DNA of 63,053 nt, filler included, from Octopus bimaculoides (Eukaryota), in assembly GCF_001194135.2 (NCBI RefSeq). It is 4 parts of 3 records of this genome, joined end to end, with 100 filler letters (N's around TTAATTAATTAA, not from the genome) between each part and the next. Parts side by side here need not be neighbours in the genome. Positions count along the whole stretch, not along the records: positions 1 to 11,346 come from NC_068987.1; positions 11,447 to 42,153 come from NC_068999.1; positions 42,254 to 61,781 come from NC_068987.1; 1 more part is not named here. The stretch is one strand, 5' to 3'. A program made the translations under genes and the position numbers. The notes under the pieces are model-generated. The model ran no database searches. It had not been told where the DNA came from and saw nothing but the letters and a program-made list of their open reading frames with translations. Numbering within the stretch: position 1 is the first letter of the stretch; each line of letters opens with the position of its first letter. This document shows positions 9,513 to 59,734 of this stretch, one piece after another.

Positions 9513-9571
9513 CCTTCATCATCAGCTGCCCCACGGATATCATTATGGTTTCGATACCTGGGCAGTACCAT
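9513..9571 (-). ncRNA. Candidate non-circularly permuted hammerhead ribozyme (family A)
   Basis: Minus strand: ATGGT-A-CTGCCC-A-GGTATC-GAA-ACCAT-13 nt-GGGCAG-CTGATGA-T-GAAGGC. P3 is ATGGT/ACCAT, P1 is CTGCCC/GGGCAG, and P2 pairs at 4 of 6 positions. Confidence 0.6.
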
Positions 9572-10244
9572 TCAATCTGGCAGTGTCAACAGCACTAAAA
9601 GAAGTGTTGTTTGGGAACAAACATACAAAAAAAAAAACACAACTTACAAACACATTTATCCTTTGTACAGCAGTATTCAATCTAAATATAGGCAGGATTA
9701 AACACTAACTTTAAAATTAAACTACAACAAGAAACAATCTATGTACATCTGTATTGGTATTAATAGTAAACCTACAATAACTAAATTATATACTAAATAG
9801 CGACCAATATTTAAGTCCATACAAATAATAATCCTACTAGTCTTCCATAATTAGTACTATAATAAAAGAAAGTGAAAGCTTTATTTCAATTCTCTCCAAA
9901 ACAAAACACGATTGAATTTAATTTAACGAATAATATAATAACTTCTGAGTGAAATACATTATTTCATAATTCAAAAGTTAATAATAAGAACACTACATAC
10001 TCTGAATATATTTTACCCTTACAAGCTATAATGTAAACTTATCAGTTACTAATAGGAACATTGAATTTATTAAATAGGAACTAATAAAAGTATACTTGTA
10101 ATTAACTATTATTATAAAACTTTGCTACGAATAAAGCTAAATTAAAACTGCTTAAAACTTACATGTCTTTTTCAAAACACATGGTTCCATCACTTCTAGA
10201 ACCTAAAAGATTATCTTAACTATAGATGACGTAGTACGTAACTA

Positions 10245-10545
10245 CTACTTCCTCAATTGTCTCAAACAATATCGGTGACGTAGTAAGCAAATAACTTGAG
10301 TCATAAACATACCAAATCTGTACAAATATTTGCTAAGTTGAAGACTAGATACTACCCCATATTTATTTAAAATTTCAAGTCTCTCACCTAAGCAGTGATG
10401 AAAAGTTTTAACCAATTTATCATATCTATACCCTTGTTTTATTAAATGTCTTAACAGTTTATTTATTCTATACAAAAATTTATTAGCATTATTAATAGTA
10501 GTACTATATCTGACTATTTGCCTTGCAAAAGCACCATCTATATAT
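10245..10545 (-). pseudogene. Penelope-like element (Naiad-like) RT C-terminal fragment
   Basis: GAFARQIVRYSTTINNANKFLYRINKLLRHLIKQGYRYDKLVKTF resembles the PLE thumb pattern (Q-L-I-R-Y...L..QGY....L...F) typical of Naiad-like elements. It is 5'-truncated. Confidence 0.6.
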
Positions 10546-11346
10546 ATATAGCTGAGTTTGTGAGTGTGTGTGTATGTGTATCCAATTCATACATTTACAC
10601 AATTCCAAATTTCTTGAATGAAACAATCGGAATTAATATTCTAAATACCATAACCTAGGTAACTGCGTCATTTTTTCCGTCAAAATCAATCACAGTTACC
10701 AATAAAATCCATTAAACTGCGCAAAATAAAATTCCCCCCTCTAATAAAACCTAAATTTCCTCTTCCTACGACCTTTACAAATCCTTTCAACTCCTACTTT
10801 CTCTTATGAACGTTTATGAACGATAACTCTTACTTTCTCTTATGCATACTAAGTCATAGATTAAACTTTTGTTTTAGTTACGCTGTATGTAAACAAACAA
10901 GTTTGTTTTTCGAAGCGTTGAAATGTACGGTAATACAAGTAGAAAGATAGATTTTATTCAACGCATACATACTGAACAGTATACATATAAGGGATAAAAT
11001 CCTTTTTTCTTTTTAAAAGCATCTATTACACTATTTTCCTTTTGTTTCTTGACTCCCGTAAGGCGTCTCAGAACATTCACGCTTTAGTTTGACCGACAGG
11101 ACTACGTTACACTAATTATATGTAAACCAACGAATTCAATTACAAATACATTTTCTGTTTCAAAACGCTACCAATATAAATGGATGCTTCATTACTATTT
11201 ATATGTTTCAACTACAAAACATAATATCGGCCTGAAATACACATGAGCAGCTTCCATTTCCAACTTTGTTAACTACACACCCTTTCGTACGGTATTTTTC
11301 AATCCGAAACCATACGTTGCTCTTATTTTCTTCATCACATTCCTTA
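10537..11346 (+). mobile_element. Possible non-autonomous Helitron-like element abutting the PLE fragment
   Basis: A|TCTATATATATATAGCTGAGTTTGTGAGTGTGTGTG is a typical Helitron-like 5' end. The 3' end is lost at the scaffold join. Confidence 0.35.
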
Positions 11347-11446
11347 NNNNNNNNNNNNNNNNNNNNNNNNNNNNNNNNNNNNNNNNNNNNTTAATTAATT
11401 AANNNNNNNNNNNNNNNNNNNNNNNNNNNNNNNNNNNNNNNNNNNN
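11347..11446. other. Artificial scaffold-join linker
   Basis: Exactly 44 N + TTAATTAATTAA (stops in all six frames) + 44 N. It is identical at 42154-42253 and 61782-61881. Confidence 0.95.
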
Positions 11447-12244
11447 TATATATATAGTCACACATTTATTTATTAAAGGAATATACCTTGTATAGCAATT
11501 AGGGTAAAGAATTATGAGTTATGTGAGGAACGAATATATATATATATATACATAGATATATATATATGTGTGTGTGTGTGTGCCCACACACATTCATACT
11601 CACACATACACAATACACACACACACCTGCTCTCATATATTTCAAAAGGTAGTACAGAAGTTCAACAAAGAATTTTTCAGGAAAAAGTGTAAAAATATAA
11701 ACACATTGAATCCCTTCGTGAGTGGATGATTGGATGTTGCTAGAGCAGTTTTGGCACCAATGACCAAATTGCTCAACATGGCCATATCTGCAGCATGGAG
11801 CTGCCAGAGTAAGGATGAGAGGATAAGAAAATCAAAAAAGGATAGGATATTCATGGATGATAAGAGTAAAAGTCCTGAAGAAACTGAACCAAGGTCTAAG
11901 GGGTGAAATCCCTGGAAATGTAAAGAGATGGACATGGACAAAAGTTGTTTTGAGTGGGAGGTAACTTTTGAAAGGGAAAAATATATGAAGAATTAGTTTT
12001 CGATGCCTGTGTAAAAATTGGAGGGTAGATGGGGAGTTGCAGAGAGGGAAAGGGGATGGAAAGAGAGGAAGAGAATGGGATGGAAAGAAATAGGAGAGAG
12101 TGAGAAGGGAGGGAATATAAAGGGCAAAACATTTTGAACTTCAAAAGACATATGAGTAGAGGCTAAGAGCCAGAGAAAGAGAAGGAGAGACAGAAAGAGT
12201 AGTAAGGAAAGTGAAGGAAGGAGATAGATAGATAGATAGAGAGG

Positions 12245-12291
<47 letters not shown>

Positions 12292-13431
12292 TCTTAGAAA
12301 ATCTGAGTAAAGTCAAAGGGAGGAACAGAAAGAGAGGGTAAGATTGTGAGAGTTGAAGTAGATTTGATCAAATTCAAAAACAGAGAGTAAGGTAGCGAAA
12401 GAGCCAGTCAGACAAACAGACAGACAGACAGACAAGTTTTCAATATGATCTGGAGGAGAATGGTGTTCAAGAATGCTTGTAAAATTTAAGAGCATTGTGC
12501 AAACAACTCACTTAGCTCTTCTAGAATGAGCAATAATTATGAAATTTAAGACCATTGTGGAAGCAACTCACTTAACTTCCACAGAATGTTCTGGTCGGCA
12601 GCAATGAAAGATTTGATTACCGAATACATAACTTACATTGCACAATATCCTTACAGCGCATTCTATGTTAAACAATTATTACAATAATGTAGAATACGTT
12701 CCAATTCATTTGTACACTATCACATAGTAATCTGGGAGCCTTTTCTCAATGTGCTTCTTGAAATTAAGAAGGCACTGGATAATGAAGTTATTAGCTGCAT
12801 AGATTTCTTTTCACTAGGAACACTGTCAAAGCACACCAAGGACACAGTGTGTAGTTAATCAAATATAATCACAACTCTATAATTGTTGAGAATGGGAATG
12901 AATTAATGAGTTTCCTTGTGACCAACTGAGAGAATCATAGTTTGTATTCCTCATACTGTTGTTGTTCTTGTTTGAATTTAGGCAAGTTCTTTGATTAATA
13001 GCATTCGAACCATAACCTTCACATTTTTGTTTTTCCACACATAATGTATCGCGGATTACATTATCTAACGTGTCCTGTATTCTTCAGACAGTATTGTGTG
13101 ATTTATAATGGAAATTTGTCTGTTATTTCTTGTGAGTTGAATGAATGATGGCTCTTTATTTTGCATCTTACCAACAAAGGAATGTTCAAAATGGTAGCCA
13201 AATCTCCCTCAAATTATATCCTGCAACCTTAAGGAAGAAAATGCAGATAATATATTCATGTGTAGGCAAAATGACATGATGGCCATGGATGGAGAGATCA
13301 GGGCTAACTTGGAGTCTAAATCACAAAAATATCAAGAGGAGTCATAAGATGATGATGCTGTCAGGTTGTAAGACTTGCTTGAAATAGTAATCAAACTTAC
13401 TCAAATCACATCCTAGAAAGGAAGGTGCAAG

Positions 13432-13850
13432 CATGGCTTTGTGGTTAATAAGTTTGCTTCCAAACTACATAGTTTCAGGTTCAATCCTCCTGCATGGCTG
13501 CTTGGGAAAGTGTTTCCTTTTATACCCTTGGTCTGACCTTGGGCTGTAGTAGAAGCTTTGAGTGGATTTAGTAGATGGAAATTGAAAGAAGCCTGTTGTG
13601 TGTATGTGTGTGTGAGTGTATATTTGTCTTCTTGACATCATGTGATAGTTGTAAACGAGTGTCACTGTCATAGAAGCAGTGTCATTTATTTCCGATACCC
13701 TGCAGAAACACGTCTGGTGTTGGTTGAATATTACCTCACTTGGAAACAGGTGAAGGTTGGCCATAGCAAGGGAATCTGGATATAGAAAATCTGCCACAGT
13801 GAACTCCATCTGATCTATGCAAGCATGGAAAAGTCAGCATTAATATAATG
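13432..13850 (+). mobile_element. Full-length, CpG-decayed tRNA-derived SINE with RTE-like 3' tail
   Basis: Head GTGGTTAATAAGTTTGCTTCC...GGTTCAATCC, central TTGGGAAAGTG...GAGTGGATTTAGTAGATGGAAATTGAAAGAAGCC, and tail ...ATGCAAGCATGGAAAAGT. Confidence 0.75.
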
Positions 13851-14873
13851 TTGATCATTCAGATGTTTATAAGCAGTAATTTACTCTGCCTTTAGTATTT
13901 TAGTACTATTTTCTCCACCTTGATTTGCAAATATACGATCATATATGTGTGTATATATATATACACACAGGCATATTATACATACATACATACATATATT
14001 TAGTTTTAAATAAATTGGGAAAATGTACAAATTACATTTCTCTACTCTTTGTGCTTGTTTAATCCTGAAAACACCTGCTTTCTTCCGTTGTATCATTCAT
14101 GGCTGCGATAGTATACTATGGACTACAACAGCCCATATACTTCTCTCACTGCAAGCACAACAGAAATACAGCACCATAAATGATATAATCCAATTTTTTC
14201 ATTAATTCCATCCATTGTAGAAATATTATATCCCAGACTATGTTATGCAATTTTGTATTGTCTTGAGATTACTTATTGTTAAAATGATTACCATTTTCCA
14301 TACTATTAGCATTGCCCTTAGAGATTTAAGTTCTTTGAATATCTATATTTCTTTAATGTCTTGATCCATTTAGGTCTACTTTTGTCAGCTTATTCTTGGA
14401 TGTGTACACAGCACAGATGAGTGGATAAATGCATTTACAACTCTTTGCTTATAAATAAATTTTCTTGGTCCGTATCACATCTCTGTAGTCTCTGTAGCTT
14501 TTACATATCCAGGAATAATAAAACTCCATGTAACAAAGATGAAATTGATCAAAATGAATGTAAGCGTAGTTAATGTTATAAATGTATTCTATCTCTAATA
14601 AAGACAGACTTAATAGTTTGAAAATTATAATTCATCATCCAATTTATTTTTTCCCTTTTGTAAGATATTACATTGTGTTTTGAGTGGTATTTGGTTACTA
14701 TGTGTCAAGGAACTGTGCACTCCCTCACCCCTATGAACATGATATGTACAGAGTGGTGAGGTTTTGCTGGACATTATTGAGTTTACATTTTGATCAATTG
14801 AAATACTCCAACAGACAAAGCAGATGAAAGTGTAAACTCGCTTTATTGTAAAACAAACATGCCTTATTATCAA

Positions 14874-14928
14874 TAATGTTTGGTTGTTTTATAATATATT
14901 TAATACATTATAAAACAACCAAACATTA
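14874..14928. repeat. Perfect 22-bp inverted repeat with 11-nt loop
   Basis: TAATGTTTGGTTGTTTTATAAT / ATTATAAAACAACCAAACATTA. Confidence 0.9.
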
Positions 14929-15191
14929 ATATATTAAACCAGGGTGTCTTGGATAAAACTACCCCTATAAGAGGTTTAAGTATCCTCATAGTATATATGT
15001 GTGTGTGTGTGTATATGTATGTATTTATGTAAACATATGTATTTGCATGTGGTCCTACCTATGACAGCATGGAAAATGGATGTTAAATGATTTCTATATG
15101 TGTATATACATAAACATATTAAAAATAAAATATATGCCTGTGCACACACACATATGATTTATGTATTTGTAAGTATAATATATATACACAC

Positions 15192-15225
<34 letters not shown>

Positions 15226-15449
15226 ATATATATANNNNNNNNNNNNNNNNNNNNNNNNNNNNNNNNNNNNNNNNNNNNNNNNNNNNNNNNNNNNNNNNNN
15301 NNNNNNNNNNNNNNNNNNNNNNNNNNNNNNNNNNNNNNNNNNNNNNNNNNNNNNNNNNNNNNNNNNNNNNNNNNNNNNNNNNNNNNNNNNNNNNNNNNNN
15401 NNNNNNNNNNNNNNNNNNNNNNNNNNNNNNNNNNNNNNNNNNNNNNNNN

Positions 15450-15506
<57 letters not shown>

Positions 15507-16019
15507 TTTATGTTAGAAAATACTTTTTCATTAAACAGAAATGAAATTCAAGTAAACTAACAACATCAACAAGAAATATAGAAATCTAATACAGTTGTTT
15601 CTTCTAAAAACAAATCATAGAAAACTATACAAAACAAATCATAGATTCCTTCATATGCAGAATTATATCTGTTATCTATCCTTGTAGAACATTTTTAATT
15701 TTTCTTCAAAACAAACAAAAGAAAATCCTGAATATATTTAAATGTTTTTTTTTTCTTCTTACCAAATAATAATTTCGTGAATATATTTATTTTGCCTTGG
15801 AAGAAGCCAGTTTTTAAATGGAAGTGTTATATTCACTGATATTCTTCTGTTAATCATCAGCATTGTCCTTGTCATCATCATCTTCATTTATTTTTTAACA
15901 TCCGTCTTCCATGTTGATATTCGTTGGCTGTTTTGACAGGGTCTGACAAGTTGGAGCCAATATGTCTTGCCATGATGTTTGCTCTCGCTTGGCCTCTATG
16001 GCTGGATGCTCTTCCTCTT

Positions 16020-16330
16020 TTGCCAAGGAATTTCAACCTTGTTTCGTGGTCTGTTACCACAACAGCTCCTTTATAGGATCCAGTTAGCTCAAGACATCAT
16101 GAGGAGGAACCATGTCTGGTTTCGGCCTCTACTCCTCTACCGTTTTGACGTGGCGGGGCCTCCCCTTTCGGAGGTGTCTTCAGCTCTGGTGTTGGGTGCA
16201 TGTCTTCTTTCTTCTATTCCCTGGCCTCTTCGATGTAGCATCAACGAGTGTCAGCGTCCGACTGACTGTCTTGTGAAATTCCCCTTTTTATACCTGCTGC
16301 TAGGCTCCAGCAGGCTGCCCCAGCAAGTTG
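16020..16330 (-). mobile_element. PLE pseudo-LTR-like repeat (same family as 36442-37020) with a degenerate permuted hammerhead at 16090-16142
   Basis: Reverse complement aligns to 36442-36700 and 36836-37020. It has TATAAAA upstream, and the core is mutated to CTCATGA. Confidence 0.8.
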
Positions 16331-16809
16331 TCATTGGCTTCACAGCGATATGATACAGAGTTAACTCCCATGGAGATTTAAGACTGAAATATTCTTTTAC
16401 TTGTTTCTAATACTAGACTTTGACCATGCTGGAGCGCTACCTGAAAGGCTTTGCTCAAGGAAATTGTACTTACTTTTCACTCTGCCACTTATAGTATAAA
16501 TTGTCATCTTGGAATATAAACAAACCAGCATTGGTTGTTAATCAGTAGGAGAACATTCACACATACAGACACACACATGTACACTCACTCACACACATGC
16601 ATATATGCATGAATGTCTGTGCTTATGTATAAATATGTGTATGGTTTCTTTTTTAGTATATATATATATATATATATATATAAAACCAATTTAGCGTTAA
16701 AGTGAAAGATTACTCAATACTTGTTAGCAAAGTACATATTAACTTTTGCTAAGTAAAAGTTGATAGTAACTTTGAATTTTCAGCTTGCTTTGCCTTCATC
16801 AGACTGTAA

Positions 16810-16898
<89 letters not shown>

Positions 16899-17367
16899 GT
16901 GTGTATGTGTGTGTGTGTGTGTGATCTAGACATTGACCTTACAACAAACACGAGTTGTTTTGATGAATCTTGACACTTTGTTTGATGTTGGAATACGTTT
17001 ATATTGAATATGATTTGACCTGTGTAAATATGGTTAACAACATATTTATACAGGTCAGAATTTATGAAGAATAATAGAGATGCTTCAGGCAGAACACGAC
17101 AAAAAACTAAAGACATAATTCAACTTTGAAGAAAGTTACGGAAGTTTGTAAAATGTTCAGTCAGTCAGACGAATAAGTAAATAATTATACTGAGAGTTAT
17201 ATTAGTATTATACTAACATATAATCATAACACTAGTACGACCAATGCATAAGAAAAAGGGAGAATTTAAGGAGAAATTCTCATTCAAAATACTTTCCCTA
17301 ATGTGTGTCTTGTTAATTAGTTAAAATCTGTTCTCATCATTATGTTGCTCAGTTAATAAAATCATAT

Positions 17368-17404
<37 letters not shown>

Positions 17405-20400
17405 CACACACATTTTTAATTTGTTTGAAGAAGAGACAGTTCAAATAGATCTTTGTACTGAATGAAATGCTTTGTACAAGATGAGGTAGATATACAGAAT
17501 ATTGACTATTTTTTTTTTTATAAGTGAAAATGCTTTCATTGTTACATTCTCCTGTTGATAAAATTATGTGTCTTATGTGTGTGTGAAATAAACATCAGAG
17601 ACACACTTGGCCTCCTGCAGTAAGTGTAGGAGCTCCTCAGAGGTTTTGCAAGCCCTTCTAAATCAATCACATTACTGGAAGCCCCTCTCTATCATCAGTT
17701 GGTGTCTCCTGGTCACAAATGTTTCACCCCTTAGTCAGTTTGCTTCACCTGAGTGGGGCAGCGAGGACTAAAGAGAGACAGATGAAGTAGATTTTTATTG
17801 ATTTAAAATATTTTGAAGATGAGCTTGTTACAGAATATACACCCTGATGTCTAGAATACACCCACCTGTTATAGAATATATACCCTGATATCTAGAATAT
17901 ACCCACTTGTTATACTGTTCATTTTAGTAAAGAATAAATAAATCATTTGTTTTTTTACACTGTATAATGAAAGAGTAACATCAATTCCTTAAATTAAAAT
18001 TGAGCTGTAGCTCATAGCTGACATAACTTTAATTAGTAATGATACAGTCAATAACTAATTAAAACAGACGAAATAATATATTTTCAGTAATTATTTGAAG
18101 AATGATTGTTGGATATTTTGGGGAAATATATGATAGTTTAATTTAAATCATTGTAATAAGGCGTATTTTTTTAATAAATAAAAAGAAAACTAATTATTAA
18201 GATATATAATTAAAATATTTTACAGAAAACAATTAACTGTATTATTTCCTCTTTGATATTATGATTGTTAATGTCTCACAGTTTTTGAAAAGAAAAAAAT
18301 AAATATATTTTACCCAAGCATAAACGGTAGATGCAGGGTCCTTTTGAGTTGAGTATCCTGTACATTTTGGTTGTATCCTGATCGATAACTGGAAAGAATT
18401 TATTATTAAAATAAATTTCTTAAGAAGTTTACATGAGAGTGATATAGAAAGAAATGATTTATGATATTTAGGGGCCAAAGTTGTAAGATCTGGTTGTTCT
18501 ATTGAGTAAAAATAATTTATTGGTCTATAAATAAATATGTTAAATATAACATTTTTTTCTTAGGTTTGTTCTCATAATCTGGTCATTCATTCTTCAGAAT
18601 AACATCCACCTGTAAAATTTCCACTTGCTGAAATTTTACCACAAATATCCTTTTTGTAAAAGTAAATCCTTTGTATTAATCAACCTCCTGGACCTACATT
18701 CCTATCTACCCTTACACACCTACCCGTGTGCCTGCCTACCTTCTTACCTACCTATCTACCTGCTTACCAACATACATACATGCATGCATACATAATACCT
18801 ATCTACCATCTTATCCACCTGTATGCATACACACCTATCTACCTACCTACCTACATAACTACTAACCAATCTACCTGTCTATTCTTTACCTGCCAACTTA
18901 CCCACCTAGCAGTCGACCCCATACCATTCTGAAAGGGCTGAGCACTGTACCTTTCATTTACAGAAGCTAATTAATTAAAAACGGTATAAAAGAATATTAA
19001 GTTTCATAATCTGCAGTGAATATGCATTGCATTTGTAAAATGGCATTTAAAATATTTAATAATTTACCTTCAGCAGTTAATGATGAATAAATGAGAGAAA
19101 TTTAATTGAAAGGAATATAGGAAAAATTGCAGTAAGAAATTTTGGCATGAATTCTAAATTGACAGGAATGAAACCATAATTGTTAATAATTTCATTAAAA
19201 ATAAATTTCAATTTCTTCTTTAATTGCACTTGTCAACTTTTCTCAATTTACTTGTTGCTAAGAATGAAGCTATTTTCTATGTGCATATTCAGAAATTATC
19301 ACAATTTTGCACCTTTTTTTCTTTTCCCTTCATAGAAAATTGTTGACTAAACATTATTTCTAAAGAATTCCTGTGAAAAATAGATTTTTAGCACTTGCAG
19401 GAAAGGATAGGATTTTAAGGGAAGTGTTAAAGCTACCGAATACACTGCAGTAATTGACTGATTGGCACTGTTTTGTGTATGATGAAGGATATTCTTTAGA
19501 GCCAACTGGTGTAGCAGGTCTATGCTATGATTTGAACCAGGGACTTGCTGTTTCTGATCAGGAAATGGTAAGAAAAATCTAACTTTCAAATAATGATGTC
19601 ACCATAAATCTTCTCAATTAGATTTGTTTTGTAGTCTAAAAGACCTTAGAACCAACAAGGAAACAAGCCGGATGAGCGATCTTGCAGAGGATGGATGCAA
19701 TCATGCATTAAGTTAGGTGATATCAGTTGTTGTTCAAGCAGATATGCCAATGTGAACCGTCTTGAAGACAAATTATCGAAATTGTCACTGACTGGCAGCA
19801 AACACTGCTGTTCATTTCTAACCCCTCCTTCTCTTTTCCTCTCAATCTAGATCTTTCTCTCATTTACATATAAACACTCTTTTGCTCCCCCACTGGATGG
19901 TCATGTCCAATGTAATCTCTTAACAATAACAATGTGATGAACCAAAATCAATGGCTTTCCTTTCATCCATTCAATTCATTGTTACTGAGGTAACAACACA
20001 CATTCATTTCTTATTGTTACACTGACAGTGTTCACAACCGTATATCTTTAAAGGGGAAAATGATGCGGTGTCACCCCTTTCCTTCAGTGACATGAGCTAG
20101 CACTTCAAGAGAGTGATAAAAATAATTGCTCAAGTCTCTCCTGCTTTAGGGAAAATTGAAGACAGGATGGAAAATTGGAAGCCTGTCATTCTAAAAACAG
20201 AATACTTCCAGCTGACTTATTCATTTTGCTATTCATATTTCACAATCAAGATCCTACTCAGTTCCAGTGAACCCTCCTCTGCATTCTTTAGGATGAGTTT
20301 GCTGATCTTAGGAGATCAAAGGTTGGCAGAGCAACAGCGAAACATGCTATTTCCACTATTGATATTTGGTATTGCTCAAAGTACCCCATGGTCTCAACTG

Positions 20401-20816: not shown

Positions 20817-20847
<31 letters not shown>

Positions 20848-21410: not shown

Positions 21411-21441
<31 letters not shown>

Positions 21442-22136: not shown

Positions 22137-22177
<41 letters not shown>

Positions 22178-22187
22178 NNNNNNNNNN

Positions 22188-22224
<37 letters not shown>

Positions 22225-23235: not shown

Positions 23236-23285
<50 letters not shown>

Positions 23286-24220: not shown

Positions 24221-24258
24221 ACATACATATGTGAGTATATAATTAAAGCATGTCTGTA

Positions 24259-50589: not shown

Positions 50590-50746
50590 CAACATCGAAA
50601 AATACCTTGGGAATGAAAACCCAGGTTCGAAATTTCCCCAAGATATCTGAAGAAGACTGGAGAGTATATCAGCCGAAACGTTGTGTTAACAACAAACAAG
50701 ATGAGGACAAATATCCGTCGAATGTAAATAACGTAAATAATGTATA
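50420..50746 (+). mobile_element. tRNA-headed SINE with hammerhead-like tail (right arm)
   Basis: TAGTGGTTACGGGCGCGGGCTACTAACCTCAAGATTCCGAGTTCGATTTC-(AAC/AAT)n-tail containing GATAT-CTGAAGA-A-GACTG/CAGCC-GAAAC-GTT-GTGTT at 50642-50687. Confidence 0.85.
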
Positions 50747-51774
50747 CTGTCAATTAGTTAAACGATTCCTATAGGGACTAATTAAACCCCAATAAAATTT
50801 ATTCGAAGATAAATTCTTGGAGTCCTATGCAGAAATAATGCACACGATTCTCAGACCATAGCAAACGAGTCTAGATACCAGATTTTTATAAATGGTTTAG
50901 TTACTGGAAGACTCATAGCGATCAGGACCTTTCAAGTAGTCGAAAAAGAAGTATCTTTGACAACTGAAACTTGAATTAGAATACCTGCAATGGTGTGGAA
51001 TTCTACTAAAGGTATCCAAGAGGCCAGATGGTGGAGTATCAAATCGGGTAAGAAGCAACAGATTAAGTTTACCATCAAGTAACAAGAACTATCTACCCAA
51101 CAGGTTTCTTTATATTTTCAGTCGATCAGATTTAATTACAATGATTTTGGTCAATTTAAGGAGGTGATATTAGATGGTACTTACCCAAAGTACCACGTAC
51201 TGAGATTGATCCCGAAACAGAATAACTACAAAGCGAATATCTTACACAGAGCTACGCCTAAAAAATAAATAATTTATACAACTCTTCCAAGGCTTGAATT
51301 GAACTTTTGTATTCACAGAGCAAAATTTTTCTCTAGTGACGCGGCAGTTATTCTTCATGGTTAGATTGATTGAGGCATGAAGAAGAAAATGTCCTGCGCA
51401 GAGATATATGAAAATGTCTGGTTGCAGATTAAAAATTATTGACTCCACTAAGCTGGTAAATCAATACCTTAGCCACTCAACTATTTAAGCGAACCAGGAA
51501 CATACATATTAGCTTTGATTCATAAATATTAGTACACATTTATACACACATCATACGTACATACATATTCATTCACACACACATGCACAGCAAGACAGTC
51601 AGACAGACAGACCCCCCCCCCCCACACACACAGAGCACAGAAATACAATATCTCATTCCGAGAATCATGCATCATTTTATTCACACACATTCACAAATAC
51701 ACAAAGACATATTTCCAGATTCATGCAACACTCTTTGTCTTCTGTTTATCTGCTTTTTCTTCTTTCACCCCCTT

Positions 51775-51948
51775 CTCTCTCTCCCCGTCTCTCTTTCACT
51801 CTCTCTACTCTCTCCTCTCTCTTTCCTCTCTCTCTCCCCGTCTCTCTTTCACTCTCTCTACTCTCTCCCCTCTCTTTCCTCTCTCTCTCTCCCCGTCTCT
51901 CTTTCACTCTCTCTACTCTCTCCCCTCTCTTTCCTCTCTCTCTCTCTT
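51775..51948. repeat. CT-rich minisatellite, about 54-bp unit x3
   Basis: CCCCGTCTCTCTTTCACTCTCTCTACTC recurs at about 51783, 51836 and 51891. Confidence 0.9.
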
Positions 51949-52260
51949 ACACAAACACACACACACACAGACATACACACACATGCACACGCGCCTACAC
52001 GCACAGGCACGTGCTCAGAGATATGCTTAGTTATACACGAAGCATACACGTGTATATGAGCAAGTAGAGGCGCACAAGAAAATGTGCGCACGTGTGCAGT
52101 GTTTCCTTCTTCCGTCAATGACACGAGGCAAATGGCCTCTGGTCCTCGTGATCAGCCATTAAAATTTTGCTAGCTTGATCATTTCGTTTGGTGTATATTG
52201 TTTGTGTTCACTAGCAATGGTTTGTCTGCTCGCTAGTGACTTCTGTTAGAATGTGTGATG

Positions 52261-52345
<85 letters not shown>

Positions 52346-52775
52346 AGAGTAAGTTAAGTGTGTATGAGTGTGTGTGTATGTGTATGTGAATGAGTGAATG
52401 TATGTGAGCGTATGTGTGAGTGAGTGTGTGTGTGTGCGTGTGTGAATGAACGATGCTTGCTTAGTGCTGGATTAGTTGGCAGCGAAAGGAAATTCAGTCA
52501 AACGCTGGCCAAACGCATTTCCTTTGACCTATTGACTCAGCATTAGTAAACGACACACGACTTAACAGCACGCAATTGGTTCCAGGAGATTCAGCTTACA
52601 CCTTCATTAGATGGTTTGGCAGCTTTTGCATCTAGACTATAGAGGCATAACGGATAATAAAGTCTTCTCTTTCTCATTTTCTTTCATATCCCTTCAGCGT
52701 GCTCTCTGTCCCTCTATAATTTTATCAACATACAAATTACACCGCAATATACACGTACAGACATAACCATTTTCA

Positions 52776-52822
<47 letters not shown>

Positions 52823-52964
52823 AGATAATACTCGAACACACATGCATATGTATGTATGTAAGTATATCTGTCTGTCAGTCTGTCTGTCTATCTATCTATC
52901 TATCTGTCTATCGATCTGAATGTCAGTCGGTCTATCTATTTTTACAGATATATATATATATATA

Positions 52965-52997
<33 letters not shown>

Positions 52998-53336
52998 ATG
53001 TGTTTNNNNNNNNNNNNNNNNNNNNNNNNNNNNNNNNNNNNNNNNNNNNNNNNNNNNNNNNNNNNNNNNNNNNNNNNNNNNNNNNNNNNNNNNNNNNNNN
53101 NNNNNNNNNNNNNNNNNNNNNNNNNNNNNNNNNNNNNNNNNNNNNNNNNNNNNNNNNNNNNNNNNNNNNNNNNNNNNNNNNNNNNNNNNNNNNNNNNNNN
53201 NNNNNNNNNNNNNNNNNNNNNNNNNNNNNNNNNNNNNNNNNNNNNNNNNNNNNNNNNNNNNNNNNNNNNNNNNNNNNNNNNNNNNNNNNNNNNNNNNTGC
53301 GTGTGTGAGTGTGCGTGTGTGAGTGTGCGTGTGTGA

Positions 53337-53386
<50 letters not shown>

Positions 53387-53418
53387 CTGCATATATGTGT
53401 ACATCGCTGATCTCGTAT

Positions 53419-53852
53419 AGAGAAAAACAACCTGTTTTAAATCTCTGAGTGAGAGATATACAGTAACAGTATGAAATAGTAATGTTTATATGCCAACAGA
53501 ACGTGGCAGTCCTGTAAAGGGCCATGTTACTGTTGTTATAGCCCCAGAAAAACATATTTTTCAGCTGGCTATCGACACACAATTTGTGTTTGTATAGTAT
53601 TCGCAAGGGAGGTCATCGCTCCCATCTCTAGCCTTACGTGATACTCACAGACCCGGGTTTCTGGGTGATAAACTGTCCTCAGTGTAACATAATCACAGGC
53701 TAGTGACAAAAGCTTTCTCCACTTGCAAATGCTATGTATTTTTAAGCGAAATCGTATATAGGACTGCCATGTTCTGCTGGCATATAAACATTACTATTTC
53801 GTACTGTTTCTGTATATCTCACATTCATAGATTTAAAACAAGTTGTTTCTCT
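53419..53852. mobile_element. MITE-like foldback with about 97-bp inverted arms
   Basis: 53419-53516 is the reverse complement (with scattered mismatches) of 53757-53852. The interior contains a repeat shared with 62045-62215. Confidence 0.8.
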
Positions 53853-53893
53853 CTCTCTTTCTCTCTCTCTCTGTCTCTCTCTCTCTCTCTGTC

Positions 53894-53996
<103 letters not shown>

Positions 53997-54321
53997 GTAT
54001 ATATATATATACACACACACACATATGTATATATATATNNNNNNNNNNNNNNNNNNNNNNNNNNNNNNNNNNNNNNNNNNNNNNNNNNNNNNNNNNNNNN
54101 NNNNNNNNNNNNNNNNNNNNNNNNNNNNNNNNNNNNNNNNNNNNNNNNNNNNNNNNNNNNNNNNNNNNNNNNNNNNNNNNNNNNNNNNNNNNNNNNNNNN
54201 NNNNNNNNNNNNNNNNNNNNNNNNNNNNNNNNNNNNNNNNNNNNNNNNNNNNNNNNNNNNNNNNNNNNNNNNNNNNNNNNNNNNNNNNNNNNNNNNNNNN
54301 NNNNNNNNNNNNNNNNNNNNN

Positions 54322-54368
<47 letters not shown>

Positions 54369-54393
54369 ATATATATATATATATATGCATATA

Positions 54394-55578
54394 CAGAGTG
54401 CGAGGAATAAATTATCACCATGTTATATTTTTCATTTCACGCATGCGCATCGTTTGATTTTTATTTTGTCTGCTACACAGTAGAGTGGGGTCATCTGTTA
54501 GATAACCAGCATCATGACAGAGTTCACTCTGCCAGAGATTTGGAAACGAGATGCTGTACTGCTTGGCATTCGTGGCGGAAGATCCAAAACGAACATTCTG
54601 AGTATGAAGGTACGGCAACTTGGAAAACTCACTCTGATCGTTCTGATAAGAACTCTTAAATTTGTTAGTGAGATCCAGACCATGATTGATAACGATCCCT
54701 TCAAGTTAATCAGGTCCATCACCAGGGACATGGGGGTGTCGGAGTTTCTAATCAGGCAGGTAATGCAGGAAAACATTCGGTATTCCTCATACGAGATGAG
54801 AAAGGGTCAATTTTTTAAATTCCAAGTCATCAAGGACAATTAGAAAGACCGCGCTATGAAGCTTTTGAACAAACTCAAGCATCCCCTCCGACCGAACACG
54901 CTTTGGTTTTACTCAGGCGAGAAAAATTTCTGCCAGGATCAGATGGTGAATACATAGAAAAGCAGTTGGCATGCGATGTCCTCAAAACGCGTACCGAGAG
55001 TGATAAAATTGAAACAGTCAGTTAACATCATGGTGTTTGGAGTGATCACTAGTGATGGTGACGTTATGCCTCCATTCATCTTCCCACACAACCTCTCACT
55101 GAGGACGGAAGCTTACATCACTTGCCTGGAGGAGATAGTGCTGCTTTGGGTCAAGATGATGGCTGTTGCAAGGTCCGATGTCTGGCAACAGGACTCTGCA
55201 CCCTGCCACACAAACAGGAGAACCGAGTCATATCTGTCAAACAATTTCTGCGACAACATCACCCATAACATCTAGCCACCTAACTCCCAAGACTGCAACC
55301 CCCTTGATTATTGTGTGTGGGGCCCAGTTGAGCGAGAGACCAATAAAACTCCTTGTAACACCAAAGATGGACTGAAGGATTATGGCAGCATTCACAAATT
55401 TAAAGAAGATGAGCGTACAGAAGAGTTGCAGGAGATTCCGAAGTGGTCTGAAGTCCGTGGCTGAAACCAATGGCGATTTTATTGAATAAATTTACTATTT
55501 AGTATTTCAAGATATTTTCATGTAGTCAGTGTTATTTTCATTTTTGCGTAATTTAGACAATTAATTCACCTTACTCTG
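54394..55578 (+). mobile_element. maT/DD37D (Tc1/mariner superfamily) element with degraded transposase
   Basis: TA|CAGAGT...ACTCTG|TA ends. Motifs are WFYSGEK, IMVFGVITSDG, WQQDSAPCH and PPNSQDCNPLDY, with 37 residues between QQD and PLD. Stops and frameshifts are present. Confidence 0.85.
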
Positions 55579-55663
55579 TATATATAAATTATATGCTCAC
55601 ATTTACCTTCGTCTTAACATTTATAACACATCAATGCAGACTGATACGATTTTACGCGAGTTG

Positions 55664-55707
<44 letters not shown>

Positions 55708-55708
55708 A

Positions 55709-55745
<37 letters not shown>

Positions 55746-55825
55746 GTCTATCTATATTGATAGAAATGGTAAGACAACAAAAGAATGAAGGAGGCCTCGA
55801 TATTATGTAAATAGAGGAATCTATC

Positions 55826-56061
55826 TGTAAATATAATATGTGACAATTATTAGGTAGCCATGATAAAACTCCGAGTTTCGGATGTCGGGCGTAAATCCAC
55901 GCCGGCATCTCTTCAGTTATCGGGCCATCCAAAAAAAAAAAAAAATTCTATGAAAATGACCGTTAAACAAAGGGGAGATGCCGGCGTGCGTTTCCGCCCC
56001 GACATCCGAAACACGGAGTTTTATCATGGCTACCGAATAACTGTCACATATTATATTTACA
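55826..56061. mobile_element. 236-bp MITE-like palindrome with about 86-bp arms
   Basis: TGTAAATATAATATGTGACAATTATTAGGTAGCCATGATAAAACTCCG...GCCGGCATCTC pairs with GAGATGCCGGC...CGGAGTTTTATCATGGCTACCGAATAACTGTCACATATTATATTTACA. No clear TSD. Confidence 0.85.
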
Positions 56062-56299
56062 CCCCCCACACCCACCCACACACATATATATATATATATA
56101 TATATAAACTAATCGATTTGCAATTTTCCATGTTTTCCAGACAAGATGTCCGGCCATACTGACACCAGCTTTTCTAAGAATCAGTGAAAAGCCCTTTGAG
56201 ATATTTAGCTAGAAAAAGACAAGCTGAAATCGTTTTGTGCCAGCCTCACCATATCTTCCCGACTAAGCAATGTTGAGAGAGCTAAGAACATCCAAACCT

Positions 56300-57200
56300 T
56301 CAGCGATGATACCAACATTCATTCTCTGACTTCCATCTTTAAAGTCTTTTCAAGAACCGTAAAAAGTATTGTGAATAAGTTTGAGAAAGAAGGAACAGTG
56401 GAGGGGAAAACTGGATCAGGAGGTTATATTCGCAAAGGGATCGTCATTTCAATCTGGAGCTGAAAAGATCAATCTGAAGAGATCCAACTCAATCCATAAG
56501 ACGCTTGGAGTCTCAGCAATGAAAGTTCAAAGAGCGGTGACAGAAGACTTGTAAATGAAATCGTACGTGAGACCTGTGAGGCACCTTGTAACTCCAGGAC
56601 AAAATGTTAGAAGATTGGAGAGGGCAAAGATCATCTTGAACAAAATGAGACATAAGCCTGGAGTGATATTTTACACCGATAAGAATTTCACTCAATATAA
56701 GCACACAAACAGAATCAACAATCAAGTTCTGGCTTCAGATACTGACAGGGGACAAAAATGACATTTTCAGGTGGAACAAAAAAAAACCCTACCAATGTGA
56801 TGATTTTCGCCTGCATGGCCTCTGATGGTAAGAAGATGTTATTGATCATGGTTGAGAAAGCTGAGAGACTGACAGGAATTTGCTATGTTCAGGTTTAGAA
56901 AGACGTAAAGACCTGGATTCTTTCCGAATATTTCGAGGCAAGAGACGAGGGCAACCCAAATAAGATCGTTACGGACTTCAAGTTTAAATTCCAGCAAGAC
57001 GAAGCTCCTTGTGACACAGGTGCAGTAGATGAATTTGGAGACAGGGTTTGGGATAAGGACACTTGGTCTCTTTCATCACCTGATTTGAACTCTATAGACT
57101 TAAGTATCTGGAATGAACTAGACTGAAAAGCTCGTGAGAAGCCCCACAGTAACCGGCAAGCCCTCAAAACCTCCTAATAAAACTGTAAGCGTCCTTTCGA
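56300..57200 (+). pseudogene. Second maT/DD37D-like transposase relic
   Basis: VNKFEKEGTVEGKTGSGG, MKSYVRPVRHLVT..Q...RLERAK.ILN, VMIFACMASDGKKM, FQQDEAPC and SSPDLNSID. Confidence 0.7.
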
Positions 57201-57655
57201 ACTTTATTCCAATCCTGCATGAGATCCCAATCATGCGCTATGGTTAATTATTTCTGAAAATATTATTTTAGTCTATGATTTACTTCATCACGATTATTCT
57301 AGTGATGGCAGAGAGTAATCAATGTTATTCTTGCTCAAAATAGAGTCCAATAGGGTTAGAAAAACGTCTCATAATTCCATTAACTTATCTTTAAGAATTA
57401 CTGAGATACAAATGTTCGAAGTTGAATCTAAAGTTTCGACAATTTTGCTGGTACCCAGTATATATCTACACACACACGCGCGCGTGCACACATTTTTCTT
57501 TTCTTTTTTCTTTTACTTCTTTCAGACATTAGACTTCAGCCATGCTGGAGCATCGTCTTCAGTCGAACAAATCGACCCCTGGACTTATTCTTTGGAAGTC
57601 TAGTACTTATTGTATCGGTCTGTTTTGCGAAACCGCCAACTTACGAGGACGTAAT

Positions 57656-58444
57656 GCTCTTCCATTTATCTGGTAGACGTGCAAGGCCCACTTCCGAAAT
57701 TCACTTGTCCGTGAGGAAAAATTCTCCTCCAGTACTATTCTGACCTCATTTGCATCATGTTTTTTCTGTCCAAATGATTTTGAAGACTGCAGAATAAATA
57801 ATAATCAGATAGGGTAATGTGCAGCGAATATGGAGTGTGAGACATCGTTTTCCATTGAAACTGCTCCGGCCTTTGAAATGTTATCCTCGTTTACGTGGCC
57901 GAGCTTTAAGTTGATGGAAGAACAGCTTTCGTCTTGCAACCAAAGATGCATGTTTTTCTTCTAGCGCAAGTGTCGATAAGGAACTAGCTTCTGAGCTAGT
58001 TTCTGAACAATTAGGATAGGATGTGTTCCACCAGGATTTGCAGGACGTTCCCGTTGAGCTCTACAATTCTTCCAGGACGTGGTTCGTCTTCTAGGCTGTA
58101 GTTTTCGGCGCGGAATTTCTGGAACCACTATTGACCCTGGCTTACGCTTACTGTCCGATCCGCATATACTGCATTAATATTCCTTGCACTTTCCGTTGCG
58201 TTGTTGCCTTTTTTGAACACATAAAGCAAAATATGCCGAATATGTTCCTTTGCGACTTCTATTATAGCTTTGAAAAATAACTGTTAAAATCGAATTACAC
58301 TCTTCAAAACTTGCACTAAGAATAACGACAAGGTAAAATTAATATCTGCTGCTTAAGCAAGATGATGCAGGTTGTTTATCCCGTACCACTCCGACTTTTA
58401 GTTCATACAATTGAAAAAACCGCATTACTTATGGGATGACCCAA
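57656..58444 (-). mobile_element. Mariner element with internally deleted transposase
   Basis: 5' TIR TA|TTGGGTCATCCCATAAGTAATGC. Translation gives EHIRHILLYVFKKGNNATESARNINAVY...WFQKFRAENYSLEDEPRPGR and C-terminal GLARLPDKWK. Confidence 0.85.
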
Positions 58445-59669
58445 TACACACACNNNNNNNNNNNNNNNNNNNNNNNNNNNNNNNNNNNNNNNNNNNNNNN
58501 NNNNNNNNNNNNNNNNNNNNNNNNNNNNNNNNNNNNNNNNNNNNNNNNNNNNNNNNNNNNNNNNNNNNNNNNNNNNNNNNNNNNNNNNNNNNNNNNNNNN
58601 NNNNNNNNNNNNNNNNNNNNNNNNNNNNNNNNNNNNNNNNNNNNNNNNNNNNNNNNNNNNNNNNNNNNNNNNNNNNNNNNNNNNNNNNNNNNNNNNNNNN
58701 NNNNNNNNNNNNNNNNNNNNNNNNNNNNNNNNNNNNNNNNNNNNNNNNNNNNNNNNNNNNNNNNNNNNNNNNNNNNNNNNNNNNNNNNNNNNNNNNNNNN
58801 NNNNNNNNNNNNNNNNNNNNNNNNNNNNNNNNNNNNNNNNNNNNNNNNNNNNNNNNNNNNNNNNNNNNNNNNNNNNNNNNNNNNNNNNNNNNNNNNNNNN
58901 NNNNNNNNNNNNNNNNNNNNNNNNNNNNNNNNNNNNNNNNNNNNNNNNNNNNNNNNNNNNNNNNNNNNNNNNNNNNNNNNNNNNNNNNNNNNNNNNNNNN
59001 NNNNNNNNNNNNNNNATATATATATATATATATATAGGTTATCGTTAAAATTAAAGTTTTGACAGGATATATTAAAATGTAGTATCCAAACCCTGTTATG
59101 AGCATGTTCCTAGTAGTATGACTTCAGAGCACGTTCACTTCACACGGCTATCTGGCATCATCCGCGGTACTGTACTTTAGTTGCTGGATCTATATATACA
59201 TACAGAATAAGAATGCGCATCATAATTATTAAGATATAACCTACTTGGAAAAGAATGCGTGACGTTCGATGCACTCTCTTATTTTATCTCTTTTCTGTCT
59301 ATCTATATCCCTCTCTTGTATTCTTCCTTGGTGTTTTTCTCTCCCACCCTTTCCCTATTCTTCTCCTCTACCCTTCACCATTCCCTCTCTCTCTTACTCT
59401 TCCTCTTGACTCGTTGCTCACACGTAACCAACGACATTTCTCTCTTTCTTCCACTTCTTTCCCAAAGACAAGACGTACTTTTATCTGTTTCTTCTCAAAG
59501 CTCGTTTTTCCAGCGTTCACCAATTCACATCGTCTTTGCTTAATAGCACTCACCGTTTGTTTTTACTGTTTTTCTCTTACTGTCCTATTTTTGTTACCAC
59601 TTTCACCTTCCGCAAAAAACCCCAAAATTTTATTTAATTTGCTTTGCGGCAAGAACTGTTTTAACGAAG

Positions 59670-59734
59670 TCGTGTATTATCCTTTACCTTCGAAACGCGG
59701 AGTAGATAAAACAGGGGACAACTGATGACGGGAA
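59670..59734 (+). ncRNA. Candidate non-circularly permuted hammerhead ribozyme (family C)
   Basis: TCGTGT-A-TTATCCTTT-A-CCTTC-GAA-ACGCGG-12 nt-AGGGGACAA-CTGATGA-C-GGGAA. P3 has 6 bp (2 G-U), P1 pairs at 8 of 9 positions, and P2 has 3 bp. Confidence 0.6.

Follow-up and report, generated by a model that had tools for sequence, protein, structure and literature searches.

Predicted core-opened hammerhead ribozymes at the 3' ends of Naiad Penelope-like retrotransposons

Hammerhead-like motifs in the Octopus bimaculoides window

Five hammerhead-like motifs from three repeat families lie in the window, the whole 63,053-nucleotide stretch of Octopus bimaculoides DNA (GCF_001194135.2) analysed here (Table 1). 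All are present where a preliminary description had placed them, at 9513-9571 (-), 16090-16142 (-), 36629-36681 (+), 36908-36960 (+) and 59670-59734 (+), and P1, P3, the GUA triplet and the order of cleavage site, GAAA and CUGAUGA (S-G-C) read as described there. These coordinates hold the motifs but miss helices P0 and P5, the full motif starting about 45-65 nt farther 5'. S-G-C cores occur three times in the window versus 0.03 times per window in 100 local dinucleotide shuffles, in agreement with the proposed non-circularly permuted hammerhead arrangement, and the core-opened (split) form had no matches in dinucleotide shuffles. The hammerhead core (CUGANGA, GAAA and a NUH triplet) is found in three of the five window copies and in 17 of 52 Naiad loci gathered by protein homology. 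The claim that all window motifs follow GAAAC ... CUGAUGA fails at 16090-16142 (CUCAUGA) and 36908-36960 (AAAA). As predicted ribozymes, the window copies are decaying relics, two of the five being core-mutated.

Table 1. Positions of the repeat elements, predicted ribozymes and their helices in the window (fractions, paired positions)
Feature	Position	Strand	Remark
5'-truncated Naiad Penelope-like element (RT ORF end and 3' UTR)	9446..10541, ends approximate	-	(TA)n on both sides
Naiad RT ORF, C-terminal 97 codons	10248..10538	-	phmmer: 13 proteins at E<=0.001
Family 1 core-opened hammerhead	9513..9617	-	core intact; predicted cut after A9566
Family 1 P0	9617-12:9518-13	-	4/6, weak
Family 1 P5	9611-08:9591-88 and 9606-03:9596-93	-	
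Family 1 P2	9587-82:9558-53	-	5/6; 6/6 in published consensus (by eye)
Family 1 P4	9579-75:9538-34	-	4/5; 5/5 in published consensus (by eye)
Family 1 P3 and P1	within 9513..9617	-	P3 5/5, P1 6/6
Family 2 repeat copy, ~305 nt	16025..16330	-	no ORF attached
Family 2 ribozyme copy, G5 changed (CUCAUGA)	16087..16184	-	presumed inactive; P0 9/10, P5 4/5, P2 5/6, P4 6/7, P3 3/4, P1 7/7
Family 2 partial tandem	36442..37025	+	unit 36442-36697, 140 nt unique, second partial unit 36838-37025
Family 2 ribozyme copy, intact core	36587..36684	+	predicted cut after A36633
P0 of 36587..36684	36587-96:36675-84	+	10/10
P5 of 36587..36684	36597-601:36606-10	+	5/5
P2 of 36587..36684	36611-16:36642-47	+	4/6, damaged
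P4 of 36587..36684	36618-24:36655-61	+	6/7
P3 and P1 of 36587..36684		+	P3 4/4, P1 7/7
Family 2 ribozyme copy, G12 changed to A (AAAA for GAAA)	36865..36963	+	presumed inactive; P0 9/10, P5 5/5, P4 7/7, P3 4/4, P1 7/7
P2 of 36865..36963	36890-95:36921-26	+	6/6
Family 3 core-opened hammerhead, decayed copy	59606..59732	+	core intact; predicted cut after A59676
Family 3 P0	59606-09:59729-32	+	3/4
Family 3 P5	59610-16:59643-49	+	7/7
Family 3 P2	59650-54:59687-91	+	3/5; 5/5 with family majority letters
Family 3 P4	59658-63:59707-12	+	6/6
Family 3 P3 and P1	within 59606..59732	+	P3 6/6, P1 8/9

Relationship of the three families to Naiad elements

A truncated Naiad Penelope-like element ends, on its 3' side, in the motif at 9513-9571. 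The 3' end of this element matches the Naiad_Obim/Naiad_Ovul consensus, and the copy is collinear with the Naiad 3' end, 5'-truncated and embedded in (TA)n. No other Naiad-like protein remnant lies close to a motif; this one drew 64 tblastn matches. Its RT tail belongs to no Pfam family, and another homologous-protein search gave nothing for it, unlike phmmer. The N-terminal GIY-YIG and the DKA motif ahead of the RT are present in related loci, the window copy being too truncated to include them. Together with the 17 Naiad-locus matches, family 1 bears out the suspected link to Penelope-like elements (PLEs) and narrows it to Naiads. An alternative partner for the family 1 11.x strand, the P3'-P1' linker, was discarded, this linker being P4 in homologues.

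For the intact-core copy of family 2, a nested fold recovered P0, P5, P3 and part of P4. The fragment 36629-36681 is without the true P2 strand, the 5' strand of P4 and P0/P5, so a negative cleavage outcome on it would be meaningless. The second partial unit of the tandem carries a tail of ~48 nt, and, set against section 6 of PMC8557442, the tandem resembles a pseudo-LTR. Reading family 2 canonically, through a GAAAC farther downstream (about 37004), failed on inspection by eye, since neither an intact core nor a P1 to match was seen. In family 3, the majority letters of run X2 bring back the upstream P2, P0 and P1. Position 59729 is A in over 99% of the depth of this run, contrary to the pyrimidine previously assigned before the P2 strand. 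The family 3 motifs do not occur in the Naiad consensi of Craig et al.

The three families had been called unrelated, which is probably incorrect, since family 1 is a Naiad_Obim/Ovul end and the family 2 core, close to identical with that of Naiad_Plae, has identical blocks of 8, 11, 13 and 14 bases in common with it (by eye). It is possible, if unlikely, that families 2 and 3 are instead other elements (retrozyme-like repeats or another retroelement) that have the ribozyme from Naiads or independently. Neither family has a Naiad ORF remnant beside it within the window, family 2 is a short unit of ~305 nt in partial tandem and family 3 is highly repeated (4224 contigs in run X2). However, besides the Naiad_Plae identities, Naiad insertions are typically heavily 5'-truncated (PMC8557442), and the motif was not found among 46 viral-contig loci matching the core pattern. 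The full-core viral loci had G-S-C order (type II-like), none with an upstream site, and a search of viral contigs for Naiad RT gave no confirmed case.

Strand order and layout of the motif

From 5' to 3', the motif begins with P0(5'), the P5 hairpin, a P2 strand with G10.1 first, 0-2 nt (usually G) and P4(5'). It continues through a short bulge, P3(16.x), H17 followed by the cleavage site, P1(1.x), 1-6 nt and P2(11.x), and ends with GAAA, P3(15.x), P4(3'), P1(2.x), CUGANGA and P0(3'). The strand preceding GAAA pairs with an upstream strand, the source of G10.1, and the CUGAUGA tail opens a new helix, P0, abutting the P5 hairpin, whose end is G10.1. P1 and P2 are pseudoknots. Helices I, II and III abut the core and covary, with G10.1-C11.1 and A15.1-U16.1, helix II being formed only with the upstream strand. 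P4 has 6-15 bp in 15 of 15 loci and 4-7 bp in the window copies. The order is S-G-C throughout the window and locus matches, and the cyclic C-G-S order of types I-III is not found in them. As a predicted secondary structure, this layout corresponds to the ring shared by type-SGC and type-CSG (Eckert 2023), with its opening now between A9 and G10.1.

Among the 150 of 175 Rfam matches listed for the window, none was a hammerhead and none lay at the motifs, nearly all being miRNA models on microsatellites; no hammerhead was matched in L009 or L024 either. Nested folding z-scores of the window copies were modest (-0.3 to -1.9), and several MFE folds depart from the model.

Pairing and covariation in Naiad loci found by protein homology

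The 52 loci were gathered by Naiad protein homology alone (out-of-sample) and scanned with all six block orders allowed and the P2 partner free, the core and an H17 other than G being required. This order-free scan gave 17 matches, all in sense orientation, 3' of the RT and S-G-C, with a G-initiated upstream P2 in 16. Of the 41 loci with at least 250 nt on the 3' side of the RT match, 24 gave no match. Bivalve Naiad 3' ends showed no core at the places viewed.

In 15 distinct loci, which include related pairs, the upstream P2 is paired at 88 of 90 positions, a raw count inflated by finding the 10.x strand via pairing, with G10.1-C11.1 in 15/15 and several pair types at positions 2-6. P1 (86/90) and P3 (67/75) are likewise paired. 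The upstream score of a locus's own 11.x hexamer was 16.7 versus 12.1 for foreign hexamers and 8-9 for control windows. P0 and P5 fit 14 of the 15 loci, 13 of these 14 leaving 0-2 bases unpaired at the junction, and P0 of at least 4 bp is formed in 13/15 loci versus 59/210 with swapped tails; it was not found in L024. Because MAFFT misaligned the 5' half of the whole motif, anchored counts and a shorter alignment were used, several rows of the latter still being misaligned. Blind MAFFT alignment gave 89% pairing with 51 double changes (0/500 shuffles), and slid controls 32-49%. These comparisons establish, for the predicted structure, the strand order, all helices, the invariant core and the sense-strand site 3' of the Naiad RT.

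Other ribozyme types occur within Naiads. Six nematode consensi have a type-CSG layout by eye. L001-L003 hold a twister-P5-like motif (E 1.3e-4) in their 3' UTR, its score of 28.7 being below the Rfam gathering value of 37.6, and in the locus tree (31 of 52 loci, with L034 and L049 left out) these loci are relatives of the core-opened carriers L004 and L005. The 'twister' tree labels of L015, L027 and L007 were given by eye only: the first two had no twister match in Rfam and the L007 motif no match at all. One Naiad lineage appears to carry a twister-like motif in place of the hammerhead, and such an exchange with an unrelated ribozyme class among close relatives would suggest that selection acts on cleavage and not on one particular shape.

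All 15 loci agree in every catalytic position and in G10.1-C11.1 and A15.1-U16.1 (the scan itself required the core), and the variation at position 7 and H17 is of the kind found in active hammerheads (the scan required H17 not to be G). With the apparent exchange of ribozyme class, this conservation makes it quite improbable that the fold is real but does not self-cleave efficiently, being bound by the RT/endonuclease for template recognition or priming, or cleaving only with protein or as a dimer, even though many PLE-type hammerheads are poor as monomers, eight of nine retrozyme dimers showed no cleavage (10.64898/2026.07.22.740005), SGC rates are slow and the motif is missing from many Naiad loci. 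A plain type-SGC hammerhead, as drawn in the preliminary description with P2 right after CUGAUGA and the upstream pairing as an inhibitory alternative fold, is very improbable: 4-5 of 6 pairs are drawable in that register in window families 1 and 2, and L030 and L041 look SGC-like by eye with block C whole, but the register pairs at a chance level of 26-28/90 in the 15 loci, places a G at 10.1 in no more than 1-4 of them and is abolished by the family 3 majority base, the tail covaries with P0 instead, and the SGC descriptor of Eckert et al. matched none of the 52 loci and, by inspection, no window copy.

Proposed mechanism and significance

We consider it likely that the motifs are copies of a predicted self-cleaving hammerhead in the 3' UTR or pseudo-LTR of Naiad PLEs, those in the window probably being remnants of such a self-cutting RNA at the element tail. 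With less confidence, we favour the broader view that Naiads across several animal phyla carry an active hammerhead topology beyond the six published block orders, with the SGC ring opened in the catalytic strand and a four-way A9/G10.1 junction, accompanied by CSG, SGC and twister ribozymes in the clade.

The three-dimensional core and the G12/G8 acid-base chemistry would be as in any hammerhead, with the cut after H17. No RNA ends were seen in the contigs, a type of data that does not show such ends. P0 and P5 would stack on each other and, together with P2 and the G12-A9 stack, make up a near-perfect four-way junction, and through this junction G10.1 would be delivered from upstream. P4 would hold the distal ends of P1 and P2 and be the main replacement of the loop I-loop II contact, a role earlier given to a 1-nt crossover; this linker spans 1-6 nt across Naiad loci. 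As has been suggested for hammerheads of other PLEs, cleavage would cut tandem or read-through transcripts to give Naiad RNA of unit length. Most speculatively, the ends would stay paired after the cut by P0, P2, P4 and P3 (about 25 bp), versus P1 alone in type I, and lasting pairing might clamp the monomer ends and favour circularisation or re-ligation.

This reading offers an answer to the Naiad puzzle: hammerheads would have seemed to be missing from a very successful clade because searches took the canonical order for granted. Non-circularly permuted ribozymes, a feature of rare viroid-like RNAs, would now also belong to the high-copy repeats of animal genomes; Naiads would be their main genomic reservoir, from which the two orphan CSG ribozymes may perhaps have come. 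For ribozyme engineering, a helical insertion occurring naturally at A9/G10.1 would offer a new place at which aptamers or strand displacement could exert control.

Comparison with known systems

The S-G-C order is that of type-SGC of Eckert et al. 2023 (PMC10085705), the study that the preliminary description had cited for non-circularly permuted hammerheads. Type-SGC (HRIMA-1 and variants) was found only in metatranscriptomes and in no genome of a known organism, and CSG-1 and CSG-2 came from soil DNA metagenomes. Both openings cleave in vitro, SGC slowly and the CSG ribozymes at 0.004-0.03/min. In type-SGC, no more than 1-2 inserted bases separate CUGAnGA from the stem II strand after it, and the count of 'six possible permutations' assumed this connection to be unbroken; a chain opening inside the CUGAnGA/stem II block would remove its basis. 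We found no counterpart in print for a layout with shuffled strands and two extra core-entering helices, nor in the literature a tested hammerhead with helices between A9 and G10.1; Weinberg 2015 (PMC4509812) is cited in PMC13725137 for hammerhead variants 'containing additional helices'. A junction at A9/G10.1 could distort the catalytic core.

Type-SGC and the Naiad motif share the order of site, GAAA and CUGANGA, a short P1-P2 linker, the core and a fourth helix ('I', here P4) joining the post-10.x strand to the P3'-P1' strand. In type-SGC, 10.x directly follows CUGAUGA(U) and the ends lie outside P3/helix I, whereas the Naiad motif has both 10.x and the P4 strand 5' of the site, a P4 continuous with P3 on either strand, P0/P5 inserted between A9 and G10.1, and a location in animal retrotransposon DNA. 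Type-CSG shares the ring with its 10.x-helix I-P3 link and similar helix and linker lengths, but its opening lies after P3' and leaves block C whole, whereas the window form has no break there and is interrupted within block C instead.

Type I hammerheads occur in pseudo-LTRs of canonical PLEs (Penelope/Poseidon, Neptune, Nematis and Hydra; Cervera and de la Pena 2014, as cited in PMC8557442 and PMC6765202). They share with the Naiad motif the sense strand, a position near the 3' end, the catalytic core and a presumed role in tandem-transcript processing, but they have C-G-S order and often a short P3; the Naiad motif differs in its non-circular order, the two pseudoknots in its core and its total of five to six helices. 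Craig et al. 2021 (PMC8557442) reported no canonical HHR in Naiads, together with unexplained 'HHR_core/half_core' flags, Ovul included. Their Naiads share the (TA)n target and 5' truncation with family 1, and the layout described here gives these flags a full predicted secondary structure.

Hammerhead cores in the window

The hammerhead feature is real, but it was misdrawn in the preliminary description and is more unusual than that drawing. The five motif positions reported there were confirmed, and an order-free descriptor found three complete cores, all with the claimed order of cleavage site, GAAA and CUGAUGA, versus 0.03 per window in 100 local dinucleotide shuffles. The window DNA is rich in microsatellites and includes 5709 N. 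The core said to be shared by all five motifs is intact in three of them and mutated in the other two. Among the matches listed from an Rfam search of the window (150 of 175), nothing fell at the motifs. The type I hammerhead near family 3 and the GIY-YIG-like reading beside it are the remnant of a separate, canonical Penelope-like element (PLE).

Coordinates of motifs and other elements (window positions, unless a protein-fetched locus, L, is named)
Feature	Position	Strand	Remarks
Motif, family 1	9513-9571	-	
Motif, family 2	16090-16142	-	
Motif, family 2	36629-36681	+	
Motif, family 2	36908-36960	+	
Motif, family 3	59670-59734	+	
Complete hammerhead core	9525	-	order-free descriptor
Complete hammerhead core	36668	+	order-free descriptor
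Complete hammerhead core	59722	+	order-free descriptor
Core mutant, CUCAUGA	16103		
Core mutant, AAAA replacing GAAA	36927		
RT tail, 97 codons	10248-10538		upstream of family 1 motif, same strand
Family 2 tail	36977-37025	+	5-bp hairpin, then GAAAC
Family 2 tail	16025-16073	-	5-bp hairpin, then GAAAC
Canonical type I hammerhead	59945-60016	-	250 nt from family 3, opposite strand
Broken GIY-YIG-like reading	60100-60390	+	adjoins type I hammerhead (by eye)
Repeat family with canonical-order hammerhead-like cores	207-366, 50174-50333, 50587-50744, about 62337		partial degeneracy; one inverted pair among the copies
Broken RT of canonical PLE, DKG motif	44800-46000	+	weakly matched by Naiad proteins
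Gag-like ORF with zinc knuckle; transposase-like fragments with DUF4371	3802-4716 and 5315-6885	+	
Twister-P5-like motif	L001:3076-3135		3' UTR
Twister-P5-like motif	L002:3014-3073		3' UTR
Twister-P5-like motif	L003:22-81 and 3771-3830		3' UTR / terminal repeat
G+C-rich motif	L006:1330-1500		
G+C-rich motif	L007:2510-2700		
SGC-like motif	L030:4600-4740		block C apparently whole (by eye, with mismatches)
SGC-like motif	L041:2390-2530		block C apparently whole (by eye, with mismatches)

Family 1 is a Naiad tail with an upstream P2

The family 1 motif and its RT tail lie in a piece of 1.1 kb overall with (TA)n runs on either side. The motif together with its flanking sequence corresponds to the 3' terminus of two consensi, Naiad_Obim and Naiad_Ovul, in the available parts of the Craig et al. 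supplement (PMC8557442), Naiads being a PLE clade. A cephalopod is therefore the probable host. Against the published consensus, family 1 has one mismatch in P2 and one in P4, and its P0 is weak. The accessible text of that paper describes Naiads as lacking canonical hammerheads, with some holding a 'core' or 'half core' that matches no descriptor, and flags Ovul as such.

P2 had been drawn between the strand preceding GAAA and the strand right after CUGAUGA-Y. In the available consensi, inspected by eye, these two strands are not paired; the strand before GAAA pairs with an upstream strand that starts with G and lies ~20-25 nt from the cleavage site. The corresponding model runs P0 (5' strand), P5 hairpin, P2 strand from G10.1, P4 (5' strand), P3, H17, P1, P2, GAAA, P3', P4 (3' strand), P1', CUGANGA and P0 (3' strand). 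We call it core-opened, as a ring of the blocks S (cleavage site), G (GAAA) and C (CUGANGA) in SGC/CSG order, opened between A9 and G10.1. The upstream P2 with P4, P0 and P5 was seen by eye in at least 11 of 54 Naiad records in the available supplement: Amil, Aacu, Anas, Movir-2, Plae, Obim, Ovul and four nameless records (parts 8, 9, 19 and 25), the first of which (part 8) has its 5' portion cut off. By eye, at least six nematode records (parts 13-16) end in a complete type-CSG hammerhead with a helix I of 8-12 bp. These counts are lower bounds, as three of the four core heptamers were searched, the commonest was viewed at 55 of 62 places, and line-broken matches were missed. Among the places viewed in the available parts, no motif was seen at bivalve Naiad 3' ends.

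Test in protein-fetched loci

Starting from the RT tail, a protein collection was assembled, 42 proteins were aligned, and 52 loci were fetched on protein similarity alone, about five of them distant matches and possibly non-Naiad. Most long ORFs in these loci have an N-terminal GIY-YIG plus a DKA motif. With all six block orders admitted and the P2 partner left free, a scan found 17 matches, every one on the sense strand, in S-G-C order and 117-1900 nt beyond the RT match on its 3' side. In 16 of them P2 forms with an upstream strand starting with G and is 5-7 bp long; the register drawn previously gives no more than 1 bp there. A stricter, split-form descriptor returned 15 sense and no antisense matches, and none in 20 shuffles of the locus set. 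Two further loci hold a core-opened motif, one cut off before CUGAUGA (L013) and one decayed (L037).

In the 15 loci remaining after removal of a duplicate (L047) and the exception (L041), the upstream P2 is paired in 88 of 90 cells, compared with 28/90 or 26/90 for the earlier P2. G10.1-C11.1 is present in 15/15, and positions 2-6 show two to four pair types each. P1 (86/90 cells) and P3 (67/75) are also paired, and P4 spans 6-15 bp in every locus. Because the 10.x strand had been located by pairing, a foreign-hexamer control was run, which gave 16.7 for own hexamers, 12.1 for foreign ones and 8.3-9.1 for own hexamers in other windows. When 18 rows were aligned blind with MAFFT, several of them misaligned and some from closely related loci, 89% of cells were paired and 51 double changes were counted, versus 32-49% paired for slid partners; none of 500 alignment shuffles scored as high, a figure inflated by relatedness.

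P0 and P5 could be fitted jointly in 14 of 15 loci (L024 excepted), with the three junction gaps summing to 0-2 nt in 13 of 14; a cruder fit with P5 placed first worked in 10/15. P0 reaches at least 4 bp in 13/15 loci versus 59/210 with swapped tails. Pseudoknot-free folding recovered P3 in 11/15 and P4 in 12/15 loci, with z from +1.0 to -6.0.

Families 2 and 3

Family 2 agrees with the model in P0 (9-10/10), P5 (4-5/5) and P4 (6-7/7). Its P2 is complete (6/6) in the copy mutated at G12, one pair short (5/6) in the copy mutated at G5 and two short (4/6) where the core is intact. By eye, its core shares identical blocks of 8-14 bases with the available Naiad_Plae sequence. The family 2 tail resembles one half of another hammerhead, of canonical type, whose core is not intact.

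Family 3 at first appeared off-model, a purine-rich upstream P2 strand being expected. Contigs of four sequencing runs were aligned on 59480-59850 (4224 contigs in run X2), and majority letters were scored position by position, without linkage between changes. With these letters (percentages of depth among the rows listed), P2 becomes 5/5 (59650, 98%; 59654, 74%), P0 becomes 4/4 Watson-Crick (59608, 93%; 59729, >99%) and P1 is repaired (59679, 96%). H17 is A or C in the aligned contigs. The majority letter at 59729 (>99%) eliminates the 'Y' previously placed after CUGAUGA.

No Naiad ORF remnant was found beside family 2 or 3 in the window, so their attachment to Naiads is only inferred. All window copies are relics, given their mutated cores and mismatched helices.

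Other Naiad 3' ends

L001-L003, which have identical RTs and group with the core-opened carriers L004/L005 in the tree, contain a twister-P5-like motif in the hammerhead's stead (28.7 bits, under the Rfam cut-off of 37.6). Twister-like motifs seen by eye in L015 and L027 had no Rfam twister match. L006, L007, L017, L019 and L052 have neither hammerhead nor twister; their 3' UTRs share G+C-rich, structured-looking motifs, which gave no Rfam match and are candidates for further or unknown ribozymes. L052, whose contig was binned with an archaeal genome, has a full Naiad ORF and is probably eukaryotic contamination. A clade of Naiad-like ORFs (L029, L030, L032, L038 and protein P0004) carries a C-terminal ubiquitin-specific protease domain behind the RT (Pfam UCH, E 1e-25 to 1e-47).

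Proposed mechanism

The core-opened motif is a predicted ribozyme that would work like a hammerhead. The SGC/CSG ring would be opened at a new place, with the chain ends exiting via P0 at the A9/G10.1 step. P0, P5, A9 and G10.1 abut with almost no linker, which suggests that P0/P5, P2 and the G12-A9 stack may form a four-way junction. Hammerheads cut after H17, and on this established chemistry the same cut is predicted here. If the parallel with other PLEs holds, this cut would release RNA of unit length from tandem transcripts. The cleaved products would, in contrast to type I, remain paired over ~25 bp, which might, speculatively, favour circularisation. Several observations count against the proposal. 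In the accessible part of a recent preprint (10.64898/2026.07.22.740005), no cleavage was obtained with eight of nine retrozyme dimers. The order-free scan gave no match in 24 of the 41 loci whose 3' flank is 250 nt or longer, and the motif was not seen at the bivalve Naiad 3' ends viewed. The twister-P5-like motif in close kin of core-opened carriers is a hint on the function of the core-opened tail.

Comparison with known hammerhead types

In the accessible text of Eckert et al. (PMC10085705), hammerheads consist of blocks C, G and S, taken as uninterruptible, with six orders counted. The S-G-C order is type-SGC, found in metatranscriptomes only, in which helix 'I' links stems I and II and cleavage proceeds at 0.007-0.19/min. 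Variants with additional helices are credited to Weinberg 2015 in the available part of PMC13725137. Neither a link between Naiads and permuted hammerheads nor an opening at A9/G10.1 is reported in the literature covered, mostly outside subscription papers, including the accessible portions of Perreault 2011, Forgia 2023, PMC13725137 and a 2019 review.

The core-opened form has the same ring as type-SGC and type-CSG, but falls outside type-SGC on block C. In type-SGC the 10.x and P4 strands follow the core, whereas in the core-opened form both have moved 5' and run into P3. By inspection, no window copy fits the Eckert SGC descriptor, and a plain SGC descriptor had no match in the 52 loci. The SGC-like L030 and L041 form a clade of their own in the tree, and a spider-region record in the available supplement of PMC8557442 (part 17) is also SGC-like with block C apparently whole. 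Type-CSG is known from two sequences only in the accessible text of Eckert et al.; these, CSG-1/2 of soil DNA, are similar in spacing to the nematode Naiad CSG forms seen in the available records and may themselves be Naiad tails.
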